This document shows positions 11,078-50,170 of a stretch of DNA of 64,000 nucleotides, piece by piece. The position numbers were made by a program, and so were the translations under genes. Numbering within the stretch: position 1 is the stretch's first letter; each line of letters opens with the position of its first letter. Origin of the DNA: Pseudomonas phage EL; sequence record AJ697969.1, one strand, 5' to 3'. Below the pieces are notes generated by a model. The model saw nothing but the letters and a program-made list of their open reading frames with translations, was not told the origin of the DNA and searched no databases.

Positions 11078-14000
11078 ATGACAGACGAACAAGACACATC
11101 CCTTTCCTATGCTAAATGGTTGGTTAAGTACCTGAGATGCAACAACCTGCCCAAAGAACTGATCGATGATAAACGCCTCCGTATTGATTGGGAGGCTCGA
11201 ACAGACGATGAAACCCTTTTAGCTCACTTCAATGAAGACAGCTTAAGTGGTATTAAGACTGTTCGTTTTCTCAAGGACTTTTTCAACTACCAAGCGGGTT
11301 ATGATCGGGAGACCCGGAATACCAGTTTCCTCAGAACCACCGAAGTGTTCAGGCAACAGGGGATCAATAACTTTTACTTCATCCTCCAATTGAACAATCC
11401 CCTGTTGAAAGGGGTGGATCCCTTTGATCCTAACCTCACTCCTGAGCAACAGGTGTGGGTCCTGGAGGAGTGTCGGAGTAACTTTTGGTACTTCCTACGG
11501 GAAGTTTGCCGGTTAAAGCCGAATCAGCCCTTCTTAGCGAACCGGGGGAATATCAGCTTTATTTGGTCGTATTTGAATCACATTACCACCTACATGATCA
11601 TGCCGCGGCAACAGGGTAAGCAGCAGCGGAACAGTGCTAAGGTTCGTATTGTGCCTAAGGATACCCTGAAGACTATTACCCCTCAGGATACTTGGAAACG
11701 GATTGAACACCTACGGGTGGGGGATCAAGTCCTGGACCGTTCCGGGAAGCCGTGTCAGGTGATTGGCATTCATCCCCAGGGTAAACGCCGGTTGTATCGC
11801 GTCATTACCAGTGACGGACGAGCCACGGATGTAGGGACTGAACATCTGTGGACCTTGAAGGATTATTCCAACTGCCTCAATGGACGTGCACTCTGGAATG
11901 ACTATTCGACCGTTGATGTCATTAACCTGTTGAAGAAGAAGGTTAAACTTCAATTGCCGTTACCGGCTCCGGTACCCGGGAGTGAACAGGACCTACCTAT
12001 TGACCCGTACGTTCTCGGGTTGATCTATTGCGGACAAGATCAAGACGGTAAGGTTATTATCCCCACGCGTACGGATGCGGTTAAACAGTACGTAGTTGAT
12101 CATCTCCCTCGGGGGGTAACAGTTATTCAGGGAGTGGCTAACAGTTGCTTAGAACGGACTGATAACCAACCTTATTTATTCAACAGGGAACACGGTTTAC
12201 CGGATCAATACCTAGAAGCCCCTTTAAACGCCCGGAGAGACCTCTTACAGGCGTTTTTAGACGTTAGGGGTAAGGTTGGTAGGGGTAAGGTCTTTATAGC
12301 CTTAAATCGCGTCCTAGGAGGTCAACTGGCGTATTTAGCCCGTAGTCTAGGTGGAACCGGTAAAGTCACCAAGAACGGAGTAGAGATTACCCTACCGGAA
12401 GAGGTGCCTCCGTTCAAGTTCAGGGAAGAGAATGTCGTCTTTGATAATCGGTTGCTGATCGAGCGGGTGACTTTCGTAGGGGATGACGATTGTACCTGTA
12501 TTGAAGTCGATAACAGTGAACAGTTGTATTTGACCGATGACTTCATTGTGACCCACAACACGGTATCGGTTCAGGTGATTGACTTCTGGTTAACGTACAT
12601 CATGGGCCGGGGGTATACGAGCCACTTGATTACCTTGAAGTCGGATAACCGAGCTCAGTTCATTGCGGCTATTAAGCAGATACGGAGTTCCATTCCCTCG
12701 TATTTGATTAACTCGACCTACAAGGACAAGGATGCTGGTACCAGTCTGACCTACAAGGCCTTTGGGGAAGATAACGTTAATACGCTGTACATTAACGTCC
12801 CTCAGATCAGTCAGGATGCAGCAGGGGATCTCGGTCGGGGGTTACGGGTAGGGACTACCAACTACGATGAGTCCGGGTATATTCGGTTCATCGACACCAT
12901 CATTGACGGGTGTTCCCCGTCCTCGCTAACGGAAATGGCGTTGTGCAGAGAGCAGGGGTTGCCGTATGGGATTACGCACATTACGACCCCCAATACCACG
13001 CTCCATCCCAGCGGGGAGTTTATGTTCAATAAACTCATGAGTGCAACGGAGTGGCGGGAGAAGTTCTTTGATTGCTTCAGTGAGAGTCACTTGAGGCAGA
13101 TGTTACTCAGGGCTTCCCCTACGAAGACAACCTCTCCGTCAGTCTCCATGGTGTACAATTACCTTCAACTGGGTAAGGACAAAGCCTGGGTGCGGGAAAC
13201 CATTGACCTGCTAGGATTGAGTTTGGCGAAAGCCAAGATCGACTTATTGCTCATGTGGGTGGAAGATGGGGAGAATCGGTTGTTTGACGATGTGACCCGG
13301 GAAGCCATTAACAACATGAAGCGGGACGTGGTGTGGAGTAAGGAGTATCGGGACTGTAACCTGTACGTGGACTTCTTTGTGACCCAACAGGAATTGTTGG
13401 AGATGGCAAAGAAGGAGTACAATGACCATTTCCTGATTGGTGTGGATACGTCCTCAGCCATTAACAAGGATGCCTGCACCATTGTGATTCGCAGTATGAA
13501 GACGGGTAAGGTCATTGGGGTGGGACGATATCCCTTAACCTTCTTGGATGATGTCACAGCCATTGTTGTGGATTTGCTGGACGTGATTCAGAACAGCACC
13601 TTGATCATAGAGCGTAACTACGCACATCACATGATCGACAGTCTGTTGATTATGCTGCCGGCTAAGGGTATGGATCCCTTTAAACGGGTCTTTAACCAAA
13701 TCTACCAAGACACCGTCAATAACGCCAAGGAGTTTGAGGAAGTCCAGAACACCAAATTTGCTTACCGGAATAAAGCGTTCTACCTGAAGTATAAACAATA
13801 CTTCGGGTTCGTGACGACCAAGACCACTCGGGACGTCCTGTACGGCCTCATCCAAGAGGCGGTTGGGAATACCGGGTACGGCCTCTGTTATGCGAAGCTC
13901 GCGGATGAATTGATCAACCTGAAACTCAAGGGGGATCGAATCGACCACGATGCGAAGCAGCACGATGACTTGGTCATTGCGTGGCTACTGAGCTACTGGT

Positions 14001-47881: not shown

Positions 47882-50170
47882 TTGATTATGCGAGCAACAG
47901 CAACTATCAGCAAAGCGAATCATTACTTCAGAATCAACGGGTTCTATGAGGAATTCGCGGTTCGGGTAATCCTACCGTTTTGTAAACTGAATCTCTGCAA
48001 GATGGCTAAGAAGCCAATACCGGGTACCCGGAAGCAGGCGTGGTTTGTTCAACACGTCTTTGCTCGGTCGAATTATGACAAGAGTGAATACCGGCTACCC
48101 ATTGAAACCCTTAAAGAGTTTGTGGAATTTGCGGGCTACCGGGGGTATAAAGAATCCCGCTTGAAGATTCAGGATGAACCGGAGATCGAAGGCAAGGATG
48201 TTGTATTCGAATTCAATCCAGGGTTTGATCAGTTCAGGGAAGGTCAAGGTGAATGGATTGAGTACATGCTGAGCGATGGGCACCTGAAGGTCAATAACGC
48301 CTCCACAGGCTTTGGGAAGATGCAACCGCTGTACGCGAAGATCAAAGTCCCGGGTGGTTGGAAGACAATGAGGGAGATGACCGTCGGTACCGAGGTCATT
48401 GCAGCGGATGGTACGGTCACTCAGGTGACTGGTGTTTACCCACACGGTAAACAACCCATTTACCGTTTGCACTTCGAAGACGGGCGTTATACCGATGCAG
48501 GACTGGATCACCTGTGGAAAGTGTTCACAGAGGAGACTCAGGCATGGACAGTCGTTAATACCCGTTCCGTACAGACCCTGTTGGCGAAAGAGCCGGATGG
48601 GGTATTTATCCCTCTGTGTGAGCCTGAAGACGGTCCGGAGAAGCCCTTTGTAACGGACCAATTGGAAGGTTCCCGCCAACAACGGTTGGAACACCTACGA
48701 CGACTCATGGATGAGAAAGGGTATGTGCGTGATGACGGTAGTCTGTCCTTTTCCAGTGAGGATGAGGTGGAAAGCACTACGGTTCAATACCTGGTTAGGA
48801 GTCTAGGGGGTATTGCCCGAAAGGTACCGTCTACAGGACTGTACCGCCGCAGGCAATACCGGGTGTACATCAAGCACCCTCGTCCTGAGGAACTCTTTAC
48901 CCTGACGAATAAGGGTGGCTACCTGACATCAAAGTCGGGTAACCAGTCCCTTAAGCTCCGGGTGAACCGCATTGAATTCATTGGGGAACATGAAGCCCAG
49001 TGCATCTCTGTAGCACACCCGGATCGTCTGTACATCACGGATGACTTCATCGTCACCCACAACACCTATATGGCCATCCACAGCATGGTGAAGATTGGTA
49101 AACGGACCTTAATCACCATGCAACCCCGTTACCAGATCAATTGGGTACGGGAACTCAACAAGATCGTTAAACTCATTCCAGGGGATCTCTTAATCTGGGA
49201 GAATACCCTGGAATCGTTGTATGAGTGTTTAGAAGACGGGAAGTTTGATCCTAAGATCATTATTATTCCGATGTCTCGTATTGAGGTCTTCCTCCGTAAA
49301 GGGAAAGAGACCCGAGACGGGTTACACATGGATGATTTGATCAAACGGATCAATCCGGGATTAAGGATCATTGATGAAGGGCATGAAGCGATTCATCAGA
49401 TCTTCTTGTCCTTAATGTTTGGGAATATCAAGAAACTCTTCCTGCTCTCAGCCACCTTGAAAGCAGACGATCCCTTTACGAACAAGATGTACCAGTACTT
49501 GTTCCCTAAACGGTTACGGTTAAAGGAGGCGGAACCCGAGCATTACATCGATGTAGTGGCGTACCTGTATCGCCTCAACACCCGTCGTTATCATCTCAAG
49601 ACGGAGCAGTTTGGAGCGTATAACGATAAGACGTTTGAAAAGAGCATCTTAAAGTCGGGTGTACTCCTGGCATTCTACTTTAAATTGGTCAATAAGGCCT
49701 TTAAGGAGTATTACCTCAATGTGAGGCGTGAAGGAACGAAGTGTTTGTTCTTCTTCTCCAGGGTCAGTATGTGCGATGCCATGTTGGAACTGTTCAGGAA
49801 AGAATATCCCGGCTGGGATTTCGAAACCTTTACTGGGGACGATTCCAAGCTGAAAGATAAGAAGGACAAGTACTTAAAGCACGAGATCATCATTACAACT
49901 CCGAACAGTTGTGGAACAGGTAAGGATATCGGGGGGTTGGTGACGGTGATCTGCGCCCACACGGTTGCGTCGACTCAGGCTAATAAGCAGATCATTGGAC
50001 GACTCAGGGCGTTGTCGGGTAAGTTCAATAATGAGATCGACCCTGCCTTTGTGTTCCTGGTGTGTTTGGACTTAGCGAAGCACGTGGAATATTTAGCCAA
50101 ACGGGAACAGGTGTTCTTTGAGAAACAGAAGACCTTCAAGCGTATCAATTCGGAATGCTCCCTGGACTGA
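47882..50170 (+). CDS. SF2 DEAH-box helicase interrupted by a mini-intein in the Walker A P-loop
   Basis: extein junction NASTGFGK|TYMAIHSMV reconstitutes GxGKT; downstream IIDEGHEA (DEAH box); AAGAGG RBS. Confidence 0.7.
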   Translation: MIMRATATISKANHYFRINGFYEEFAVRVILPFCKLNLCKMAKKPIPGTRKQAWFVQHVFARSNYDKSEYRLPIETLKEFVEFAGYRGYKESRLKIQDEPEIEGKDVVFEFNPGFDQFREGQGEWIEYMLSDGHLKVNNASTGFGKMQPLYAKIKVPGGWKTMREMTVGTEVIAADGTVTQVTGVYPHGKQPIYRLHFEDGRYTDAGLDHLWKVFTEETQAWTVVNTRSVQTLLAKEPDGVFIPLCEPEDGPEKPFVTDQLEGSRQQRLEHLRRLMDEKGYVRDDGSLSFSSEDEVESTTVQYLVRSLGGIARKVPSTGLYRRRQYRVYIKHPRPEELFTLTNKGGYLTSKSGNQSLKLRVNRIEFIGEHEAQCISVAHPDRLYITDDFIVTHNTYMAIHSMVKIGKRTLITMQPRYQINWVRELNKIVKLIPGDLLIWENTLESLYECLEDGKFDPKIIIIPMSRIEVFLRKGKETRDGLHMDDLIKRINPGLRIIDEGHEAIHQIFLSLMFGNIKKLFLLSATLKADDPFTNKMYQYLFPKRLRLKEAEPEHYIDVVAYLYRLNTRRYHLKTEQFGAYNDKTFEKSILKSGVLLAFYFKLVNKAFKEYYLNVRREGTKCLFFFSRVSMCDAMLELFRKEYPGWDFETFTGDDSKLKDKKDKYLKHEIIITTPNSCGTGKDIGGLVTVICAHTVASTQANKQIIGRLRALSGKFNNEIDPAFVFLVCLDLAKHVEYLAKREQVFFEKQKTFKRINSECSLD
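48320..49063 (+). mobile_element. mini-intein (248 aa) with degenerate homing endonuclease, inserted after GK of the helicase P-loop
   Basis: starts MQPLYAKIKVPGGWKTM (Met1), Hint block VYPHGKQPIYRLHFEDGRYTDAGLDHLWKV, only the second LAGLIDADG half remains (LMDEKGYVRDDGSLSF...VQYLVRSLGG), ends LYITDDFIVTHN with +1 Thr. Confidence 0.65.

Follow-up and report, generated by a model that had tools for sequence, protein, structure and literature searches.

Related inteins with class 3 features follow Gly-Lys in the terminase, RNA polymerase β', and helicase genes of Pseudomonas phage EL

Three inteins, referred to here as inteins 1, 2, and 3, were found in 64,000 nucleotides of Pseudomonas phage EL DNA (record AJ697969.1; "the window" denotes this whole stretch). 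They interrupt the genes of the large terminase, of the C-terminal half of RNA polymerase β', and of an SF2 helicase, respectively. Coordinates and predicted key residues are compiled in Table 1. The three inteins are clearly homologous to each other (BLASTP, E = 1e-29 to 1e-39) and have 55 invariant columns in common, including the His-x-Trp of block B, a cysteine, and the C-terminal Thr-His-Asn (THN). Their common C-terminus reads FIVTHN, followed by Thr, Ser, and Thr at position +1. A homology search of the 64-kilobase (kb) window found no further intein copy.

Table 1. Intein-bearing genes, inteins, and predicted key residues (window numbering, unless another record is named; a caret marks the insertion point)
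Feature	Position	Strand	Description	Support
Large terminase (TerL) precursor gene	11078..14344	+	1088 amino acids, predicted 775 after splicing	Open reading frame (ORF); 313 phage terminase records matched by the spliced protein; alignment to orthologues with and without an intein
Intein 1	11621..12559	+	313 amino acids, in Walker A PRQQGK^T; first residue Q, end THN	Site occupied in RisingSun, Miami, AerS_266, and LAh10; empty in Kc263 and pEt-SU
Intein 1, block B Trp	11849..11851	+	W77 (B:12); the B:10 His is H75	Invariant column
Intein 1, degenerate LAGLIDADG region	12005..12277	+	Motif remnants at 12005-12049 and 12242-12277	Alignment to intact motifs of the Miami and AerS_266 inteins
Intein 1, block F Cys	12497..12499	+	C293 (F:4), predicted class 3 nucleophile	Invariant column, 20 residues before the C-terminal Asn
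RNA polymerase β' precursor gene (C-terminal half, phiKZ gp74 homologue)	44708..47818	+	1036 amino acids, predicted 670 after splicing	PDB 7OGP chain D, 7S00_D; 278 phage records match
Intein 2	45446..46543	+	366 amino acids, at AAGK^S, N-terminal end of the bridge helix; first residue A, end THN	Exact empty allele in GXNNE2; site occupied in P0020, P0035, and P0070
Intein 2, block B Trp	45641..45643	+	W66	Aligns with W67 of 6BS8
Intein 2, LAGLIDADG homing endonuclease core	45830..46183	+	Motifs PYVLGVLLGDGCI (45830-45868) and LLQGLLDTDGTV (46148-46183)	Pfam LAGLIDADG_3; PI-SceI matches
Intein 2, block F Cys	46481..46483	+	C346	Aligns with Cys118 of 6BS8
SF2 helicase precursor gene	47888..50170	+	ORF opens with TTG at 47882; likely ATG start at 47888	Start agrees with 512-amino acid GXNNE2 product; Pfam Helicase_C match weak
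Intein 3	48320..49063	+	248 amino acids, in Walker A TGFGK^T; first residue M, end THN; half of an endonuclease domain left	Exact empty allele in GXNNE2; AlphaFold model matches 6BS8 and PI-SceI
Intein 3, block B Trp	48515..48517	+	W66	PDB sequence alignment
Intein 3, block F Cys	49001..49003	+	C228	PDB sequence alignment
Fourth paralogous class 3 mini-intein, in an SNF2-type helicase	MIZ-Pa99 PV472050.1, 166178-169000 (locus L012:4178-7000)	-	262 amino acids	Found in the rest of the MIZ-Pa99 genome

At the DNA level, the junctions read CAGGGTAAG^[11621..12559, ending CACAAC]^ACGGTA in the terminase gene, GCAGGTAAA^[45446..46543, ending CACAAC]^AGCCTA in the β' gene, and TTTGGGAAG^[48320..49063, ending CACAAC]^ACCTAT in the helicase gene. 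An earlier interpretation made from the letters of the window alone (the sequence-only reading) had given exactly these coordinates and junction strings, and the first residues Q, A, and M, the THN ends, and the T/S/T at +1 that it named are found in all three inteins. The conserved Cys, placed there about 20 residues before the C-terminus, is separated from the terminal Asn by a spacing of exactly 20 residues in each of them (C293, C346, and C228).

Empty sites were sought in related phages, as the sequence-only reading had proposed, and the junctions were checked for an offset that would hide a Cys or Ser as the actual residue 1. Phage vB_PaeM_GXNNE2 (GXNNE2), 98% identical over the region, encodes an uninterrupted β' of 670 amino acids and an uninterrupted helicase of 512 amino acids. 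Aligned to the window, these empty alleles read ...GERNAAGK^SLTNNGK... and ...STGFGK^TYMAIH..., respectively. As no residue is repeated across either junction in this alignment, there is no room to shift the boundaries of inteins 2 and 3, and residue 1 is truly Ala in the β' intein and Met in the helicase intein. The empty terminase site is found in Kosakonia phage Kc263 and Edwardsiella phage pEt-SU, whose intein-less terminases (50% identical) read MPRQSGK^TVGMQV. In RisingSun, Miami, AerS_266, and LAh10, terminase inteins occupy this position and start with L, N, L, and D, respectively. The junctions are therefore not offset.

Class 3 inteins are defined by a non-nucleophilic residue 1, a Trp/Cys/Thr (WCT) triplet at positions B:12, F:4, and G:5, and Thr or Ser at +1 (PMC2807308; PMC5050341). 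Their first nucleophile is the block F Cys, which is Cys118 in Msm DnaBi1 (PMC6195587). In class 2 (KlbA-type), Ala1 is combined with a directly attacking Cys at +1, and the WCT triplet is absent (PMC2807308). The triplets of the window inteins, W77/C293/T311 (intein 1), W66/C346/T364 (intein 2), and W66/C228/T246 (intein 3), align with Trp67, Cys118, and Thr137 of the crystallized class 3 intein Msm DnaBi1 (6BS8). Residue 1 is not Cys, Ser, or Thr in any of them, as class 1 would demand, and both the Thr or Ser at +1 and the presence of the triplet set them apart from class 2. All three features that define class 3 were thus found.

Pfam was uninformative for the splicing domains of the precursors, giving only a sub-threshold Hom_end_hint match for intein 1 (18.2 bits compared to a cut-off of 32.1) and nothing else. 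Therefore, sequence and fold searches of the PDB were used. The best sequence matches of inteins 2 and 3 by phmmer are class 3 DnaB inteins (6BS8, E = 1.3e-10; 6RIX and 6RIY, about 5e-8, with 4.7e-8 for 6RIX). In the alignments to 6BS8 and 6RIX, W falls on W, C on C, and THN on THN. Intein 3 was modeled with AlphaFold at a predicted local distance difference test score (pLDDT) of 91.9, and a Foldseek search with this model returned 49 matches at E ≤ 0.001, with intein structures ranked at the top. The closest mini-intein is 6BS8_A, with a target-normalized template modeling (TM) score of 0.86 and a root-mean-square deviation (rmsd) of 2.8 Å. The model also matches PI-SceI, in keeping with the residual half of an endonuclease domain. 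The fold match for intein 3, the block B His, and the C-terminal His-Asn together point to a HINT fold. A family alignment of 42 sequences shows no variation at G(-2), K(-1), His B:10, Trp B:12, Cys F:4, Thr G:5, or the terminal Asn, and hardly any at the penultimate His.

The assignment of inteins 1-3 to class 3 is well supported by sequence, and from this we infer the chemistry itself. The class-3-like chemistry put forward in the sequence-only reading is thereby upheld at the level of sequence and model, by the empty alleles that fix a non-nucleophilic residue 1, the WCT triplet, the +1 Thr/Ser, and the superposition on 6BS8. In the comparison to class 3 inteins that it had called for, 6BS8 and 6RIX proved to be the closest solved structures. 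By homology to MP-Be DnaB and Msm DnaBi1, splicing would start with an attack of the block F Cys (C293, C346, or C228) on the peptide bond between Lys(-1) and residue 1, as residue 1 itself (Q, A, or M) cannot attack. The N-extein would move from the block F thioester to the +1 Thr/Ser, the terminal Asn would cyclize, and an O-to-N shift would restore GK-T/S. Until splicing, terminase, β', and helicase would each remain interrupted in a catalytic motif.

The insertion points in the terminase (PRQQGK^T) and the helicase (TGFGK^T) fit the Walker A consensus GxxxxGK[ST], whereas the β' site does not. For comparison, the Walker A motif of T4 gp17 is SRQLGKT. The β' precursor matches phiKZ gp74 (PHIKZ074) in the solved non-virion RNA polymerase (7OGP chain D, E = 3.7e-30) and also the AR9 polymerase (7S00 chain D). 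The window sequence GERNAAGK^SLTNNGKALKSSEWFHRK aligns with GARKALITNYQQVRNSGYLTRK of AR9, and the start of the AR9/phiKZ bridge helix, GARK^AL, lies at the β' site. Judged by 22 residues of the bacterial β' bridge helix, the intein sits at the N-terminal end of this helix. When the β' segment was compared by BLASTP to an E. coli β' fragment, only the trigger-loop region aligned (E = 1e-4), collinear downstream. As that alignment covered the trigger loop only, the bridge-helix assignment rests on the AR9 and phiKZ alignments plus collinearity. The earlier statement that two sites are P-loops and one is not was accurate, and the odd site can now be placed at the N-terminus of the polymerase bridge helix. 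The tripeptide GK[ST] occurs only 13 times in the 21,462 ORF residues of the window (~6e-4 per residue). As all three inteins, and a fourth one outside the window, sit in so rare a motif, their placement is beyond chance.

Homing endonuclease domains are preserved to different extents. In intein 2, both LAGLIDADG motifs are intact with their acidic residues (...LLGDGCI and ...LLDTDGTV), Pfam LAGLIDADG_3 scores 43.7 bits (cut-off 22.5), and PI-SceI is matched too. A complete two-motif enzyme is thus predicted for this intein. In intein 1, the first motif is irregular and the second acidic position is taken by Arg (LDVRG), a defect this intein has in common with its RisingSun relative. Intein 3 has lost the first motif and carries a Lys in the second (LMDEKG). 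No Pfam LAGLIDADG match and no pair of intact motifs was found for inteins 1 and 3.

The terminase region of the window is 97-99.7% identical to that of seven P. aeruginosa phages of ~210 kb: MIZ-Pa99, vB_PaeM_phiRU, IR-QUMS-PaBa1 (IR-QUMS), HHBS8_1, HHBS47_1, GXNNE2, and GXNNA8. Several of these are classified as Chimalliviridae, genus Elvirus. Phage vB_PQ1 was left out, as it matches only as many short pieces. The terminase intein is present in all seven relatives, each with a match that spans the whole gene. Inteins 2 and 3 occur together in the window and in five of the seven relatives, and both are absent from GXNNE2 and GXNNA8. This joint presence or absence of two inteins 1.8 kb apart fits a single linked block, possibly moved by co-conversion.

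Further polymorphisms were observed at and within these inteins. Four synonymous differences from the empty GXNNE2 allele lie within 6 nucleotides of the β' junction (45439-45451 and 46544-46549), compared to a background of 1.9%. A co-conversion footprint was considered here and dropped, as two or three of the "empty-type" bases also occur in the intein-bearing phages HHBS47_1, IR-QUMS, and MIZ-Pa99, which leaves the Lys codon (AAA vs. AAG) as the only difference that tracks the presence of the intein. In the endonuclease region of intein 2, a C/A-rich run (45962-45968) varies in length. HHBS47_1 and IR-QUMS have an in-frame deletion of 6 nucleotides there, and in MIZ-Pa99 a deletion of 5 nucleotides frameshifts the β' precursor, which is annotated as two overlapping coding sequences. 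As the β' gene is essential, the frameshift probably reflects a sequencing error. Intein 3 differs by 5.6-5.8% from its counterparts in MIZ-Pa99 and IR-QUMS, with ~2% in the flanking exteins, which suggests relaxed constraint or a different intein allele.

A tblastn search revealed four matching places per Elvirus genome. The fourth copy lies outside the window, in an SNF2-type helicase (Table 1), with the junctions LLDAKPGSGK^AMPLST...YIVTHN^TFT; recognizable endonuclease motifs were not found in it. The Gly-Lys insertion rule therefore holds for four of four inteins of this genome, counting the three in the window and the SNF2 copy of MIZ-Pa99. Beyond Elvirus, tblastn with intein 2 matched 860 phage records, including 300 mycobacteriophages, and the annotated hosts are mostly helicases and terminases. 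All 19 sampled phage inteins follow GK. The hosts of the best 120 protein-database relatives are PhoH, AAA, ABC, SNF2, RecA, and other P-loop proteins. From these 120 precursors, 99 were parsed by a search that itself required G-K/R upstream. THN is the end of every parsed intein, Ala is the first residue of 85, and position +1 is occupied by Thr (85) or Ser (14). The block B His follows the junction at a spacing of 63 residues in 86 of the 99, as in 6BS8. GK before the intein and S, T, or (once) C after it were seen in all four β' inteins found and in every sampled family member. Lys^Thr is known as the "classic" P-loop intein site (PMC5050341), and class 3 inteins reside mostly in P-loops of helicases and terminases (PMC2807308).

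The sequence-only reading had taken a nucleotide motif, GGKAAR^AS, rather than the protein to be the common factor of the insertion sites. Closer analysis did not support this. The fixed bases of this motif all follow from the codons that encode Gly (GGN), Lys (AAR), and Thr (ACN) or Ser (AGY), and the sole unforced base is the A at +1 of the β' Ser codon (AGC rather than TCN). In 16 reconstructed target sites, the first two positions of the Gly and Lys codons carry 2 bits of information, and those of the +1 codon 1.5-1.7 bits. The wobble positions carry 0.4-1.1 bits, and farther out the value is about zero. Such a periodicity of three bases is the mark of conservation at the amino-acid level. 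Outside the 9-nucleotide core, non-homologous sites are 12-36% identical over 33 nucleotides, which is the chance level; the two SF2-type helicase sites are 45% identical there, and truly allelic sites 55-79%. The 8-mer GGKAARAS has 30 unoccupied copies in the window (21 expected). Uninterrupted GK[ST] tripeptides persist in other ORFs, and one, an in-frame GGKT, lies within β' itself; the motif is thus insufficient for insertion. Conservation of the "after Gly-Lys" rule therefore appears to lie largely at the amino-acid level and not in a distinctive DNA word.

Relationships among 19 inteins were analyzed by neighbor joining on 189 well-aligned columns. The four Elvirus copies are mutually 30-48% identical in the splicing domain. 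The terminase inteins of the window and of RisingSun form a group (48% identity, bootstrap 100). The nearest relative of the β' intein is the helicase intein of Raoultella phage VB_ZK_P1 (66%), with an identical N-terminus AGVLSS[KR]IKIPGGW; the β' intein is also 59% identical to the SNF2 intein of BUCT660 and to a metagenomic β' intein. The helicase intein is 53% identical to its VB_ZK_P1 counterpart but only 48% identical to its neighbor in β'. As three of the four Elvirus copies have a closer relative in another phage and the paralogues are this divergent, recent copying within the genome is not supported. Elsewhere in the tree, the SF2 helicase intein of Rebecca pairs with the SNF2 helicase intein of PhiPA3 (bootstrap 94), and the β' inteins branch among helicase inteins. 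The sequence comparison thus supports switching from one host protein to another at some point within the family. The proposed intragenomic ectopic homing is supported only in this weaker form of site switching within the family, and not in a recent intragenomic version.

In 99 β' orthologues, four clusters, one of which is that of Elvirus, are 250-365 amino acids longer than the others. The metagenomic sequences P0020, P0035, and P0070 (52-61% extein identity to the window) contain inteins at the same point (...[AS]SGK^A...T[HRS]N^SLI...), all of which have the W and the C and decayed endonucleases. Many intein-free orthologues read GK^S; therefore, the look-alike site preceded the invasion. 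In other orthologues the site is GK^A, GM^S, or GF^S, and in phiKZ it is TK^A. Alleles with GK^A (the intein-free orthologues P0005, P0008, P0078, P0081, and P0089) could not support splicing with Ala at +1 and would be immune to viable insertion. The bridge-helix position appears to be a new insertion site and a Walker A look-alike. No description of these inteins was found in the literature searched (phage EL, phiKZ-like phages, jumbo-phage RNA polymerase, and bridge-helix inteins), an absence which in itself is no proof of novelty.

Overall, we consider it probable that the three are HINT-fold inteins of one large, mostly phage-borne class 3 family that occupies a Walker A Lys^Thr/Ser niche, and that β' was reached by site switching. 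The window is part of the genome of an EL-like Elvirus, a nucleus-forming P. aeruginosa jumbo phage, with one intein each in terminase, β', and SF2 helicase. The Gly-Lys rule would reflect the ancestral niche of the family, which also provides the nucleophile that splicing requires at +1. From a helicase or terminase P-loop, an intein would have invaded the look-alike [AS][AS]GK^S of β', already present in intein-free orthologues. The terminase intein, with its decayed endonuclease, would be inherited as an allele, grouping with that of RisingSun. The polymorphic β' intein retains an intact double-motif LAGLIDADG enzyme, and its presence and absence are shared by the endonuclease-less helicase mini-intein 1.8 kb downstream.

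An alternative that we regard as unlikely is a relaxed-specificity endonuclease that reads the DNA word GGKAAR^AS and brought about recent ectopic copying within the genome. The word is indeed common to all four sites of the genome, one of these sites (β') is not a P-loop, and intein 2, with its intact LAGLIDADG endonuclease, is polymorphic among near-identical phages. Furthermore, similar nucleotide-binding motifs have been proposed as a route of extein switching between hosts in class 3 actinophage inteins (bioRxiv 10.1101/2025.01.02.630785). However, the word is no more than back-translated G-K-T/S with free wobble, the flanks are identical only at the chance level, and 30 copies stay empty in 64 kb, in addition to the in-frame GGKT elsewhere in β'. 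Paralogues with 30-48% identity, three of four with closer relatives in other phages, do not fit this alternative either, and the occupation of the same β' site in orthologues with 52-61% identity implies an insertion that is old or recurrent instead of a recent local copy. Finally, inteins 1, 3, and the fourth copy seem to lack a functional endonuclease.

It is less likely still that the GK^S context in β' is coincidental and that three independent insertions occurred because inteins favor any conserved catalytic motif. Inteins do generally cluster in conserved functional motifs, of which the bridge helix is one, but GK[ST] occurs at only ~6e-4 per residue, the GK before and S/T/(once) C after are found without exception in the four β' inteins and the sampled family, and the β' intein is nested among P-loop inteins. 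Ordinary class 1 inteins with junctions misplaced by one or a few residues, so that a Ser, Thr, or Cys is truly residue 1, are hardly conceivable. A Ser does occur near two N-termini (AGVLSS in intein 2, QQRNS in intein 1), but the empty alleles GK^S and GK^T without a repeat refute this for inteins 2 and 3. For intein 1, which starts at Q182, the intein-less terminases read GK^TV. Across the family, the spacing of 63 residues between junction and block B His in 86 of 99 parsed members, as in 6BS8, disagrees with shifted junctions as well.

Some points weigh against the family-wide explanation with site switching into β', and it needs to be viewed with care. Splicing, and the use of Cys F:4 in it, are deduced from conserved residues and from essential genes in viable isolates. 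As a few WCT inteins with a nucleophilic residue 1 exist, the triplet alone is no proof of mechanism, though here residue 1 is non-nucleophilic. The deep neighbor-joining nodes are weak (bootstrap 14-46) and thus do not fix the direction, order, or number of switches into β'. The intein-free Elvirus sequences found all belong to one lineage, namely GXNNE2, GXNNA8, and a metagenomic contig with 99.95% identity; this Logan contig with an intein-free β' (P0001) had been considered as a second intein-free lineage and was rejected for its identity to GXNNE2. Lastly, the GGNAAR^A core may have a DNA-level role in recognition by the endonuclease, as protein and DNA constraints are confounded at a P-loop.

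Going beyond the site switching that we favor, a more tentative and rather doubtful possibility is that the β' intein is a class 3 P-loop intein that escaped to an unrelated protein via a Gly-Lys-Ser micro-motif and that its endonuclease is still active, so that it spreads by itself and carries the helicase intein along through long co-conversion tracts. The β' intein is 66% identical to the helicase intein of another phage and 49-59% to other β' inteins. On this view, such a pattern would point to more than one invasion of the β' site.

The arrival of inteins in new host proteins is still poorly documented, and this phage group offers a compact test system. It comprises near-identical cultured P. 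aeruginosa phages with and without two of the inteins, one intact endonuclease, and, in a single genome, four related targets: three Walker A loops and the RNA polymerase bridge-helix look-alike. The P-loop Lys^Thr site and the class 3 type were known already; the bridge-helix site and the natural presence/absence polymorphism appear to be new. Four essential enzymes (terminase, a transcription subunit, and two helicases) would depend on class 3 splicing. As chemistry at an internal Cys is sensitive to oxidation in mycobacterial DnaB, infection could, speculatively, be redox-sensitive.

There is also a consequence for annotation, as these genes are split or mislabelled in public records. The intein-free β' and helicase of GXNNE2 (PV400809.1) are labelled "terminase large subunit, intein-containing", and the β' and helicase of IR-QUMS (OP599913.1) are labelled terminase. 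MIZ-Pa99 (PV472050.1) is filed under Straboviridae, though it is an Elvirus.

Other regions of the window showed additional features. At 41045-42187 (+), just upstream of an RNA polymerase gene (42362-44668), an ORF of 380 amino acids encodes a TnpB of the IS200/IS605 family (Pfam OrfB_IS605, 1e-22; Cas12f1-like TNB, 1.5e-20; HTH_OrfB_IS605). As MIZ-Pa99 is ~1280 nucleotides shorter between window positions 39000 and 44708, this element is probably a polymorphic insertion. Between 14345 and 39000, ~6% is missing in HHBS8_1, HHBS47_1, and the GXNN phages, and an HNH homing endonuclease is annotated in IR-QUMS somewhere in the matched stretch; a further mobile-element polymorphism may account for this difference. 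The most GC-rich 2 kb of the window (26066-28138; GC content 0.56, negative GC skew) contains overlapping ORFs on opposite strands, 26126-28138 on the plus strand (670 amino acids) and 26066-27964 on the minus strand (632 amino acids). A Pfam search with the plus-strand ORF gave no match.

Among known systems, the class 3 mini-inteins Mycobacterium smegmatis DnaBi1 and M. chimaera DnaB-1 (6BS8, 6RIX) resemble the window inteins most. They share a non-nucleophilic Ala1, the block B His and Trp, Cys F:4, THN, Ser/Thr at +1, and a location in a helicase P-loop; they are the best sequence matches, and 6BS8 has the best target-normalized TM-score and the lowest rmsd in the fold search. In contrast, they are bacterial and endonuclease-free, can be aligned over only ~65 N-terminal and 40 C-terminal residues, and in DnaBi1 block B position 7 is Asp, where the window inteins have Ser or Gly. 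The DnaB intein of Mycobacteriophage Bethlehem, the class 3 prototype (PMC2807308), is likewise phage-borne and inserted in a helicase, with WCT, Thr at +1, and the same Ser-x-x-His-x-Trp block B as intein 2. It differs in its junction, with Gln(-1)/Pro1 in place of Lys(-1)/Ala1, and was characterized experimentally, whereas the window inteins are known from sequence. The gp41-1 split intein (6QAZ, 6RIZ) also ends in THN and is a close match in fold and sequence, but it belongs to class 1 with Cys1. The title of 6RIZ lists the engineered replacements C1A, F65W, and D107C, so the matched Trp and Cys are non-native. With respect to the site, mycobacteriophage TerL1-a (PMC5050341) has a Walker A Lys^Thr insertion point identical to that of the terminase described here, in other phage lineages and other terminase families; it was compared by site. 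The extein switching between actinophage terminase and Cas4 (bioRxiv 10.1101/2025.01.02.630785) is similar in that related class 3 inteins occupy different hosts and similar nucleotide-binding motifs are invoked. There, however, both sites are nucleotide-binding and have 10+2 identical flanking bases, whereas here one site is the bridge helix and the flanks share only the G-K-S/T codons.

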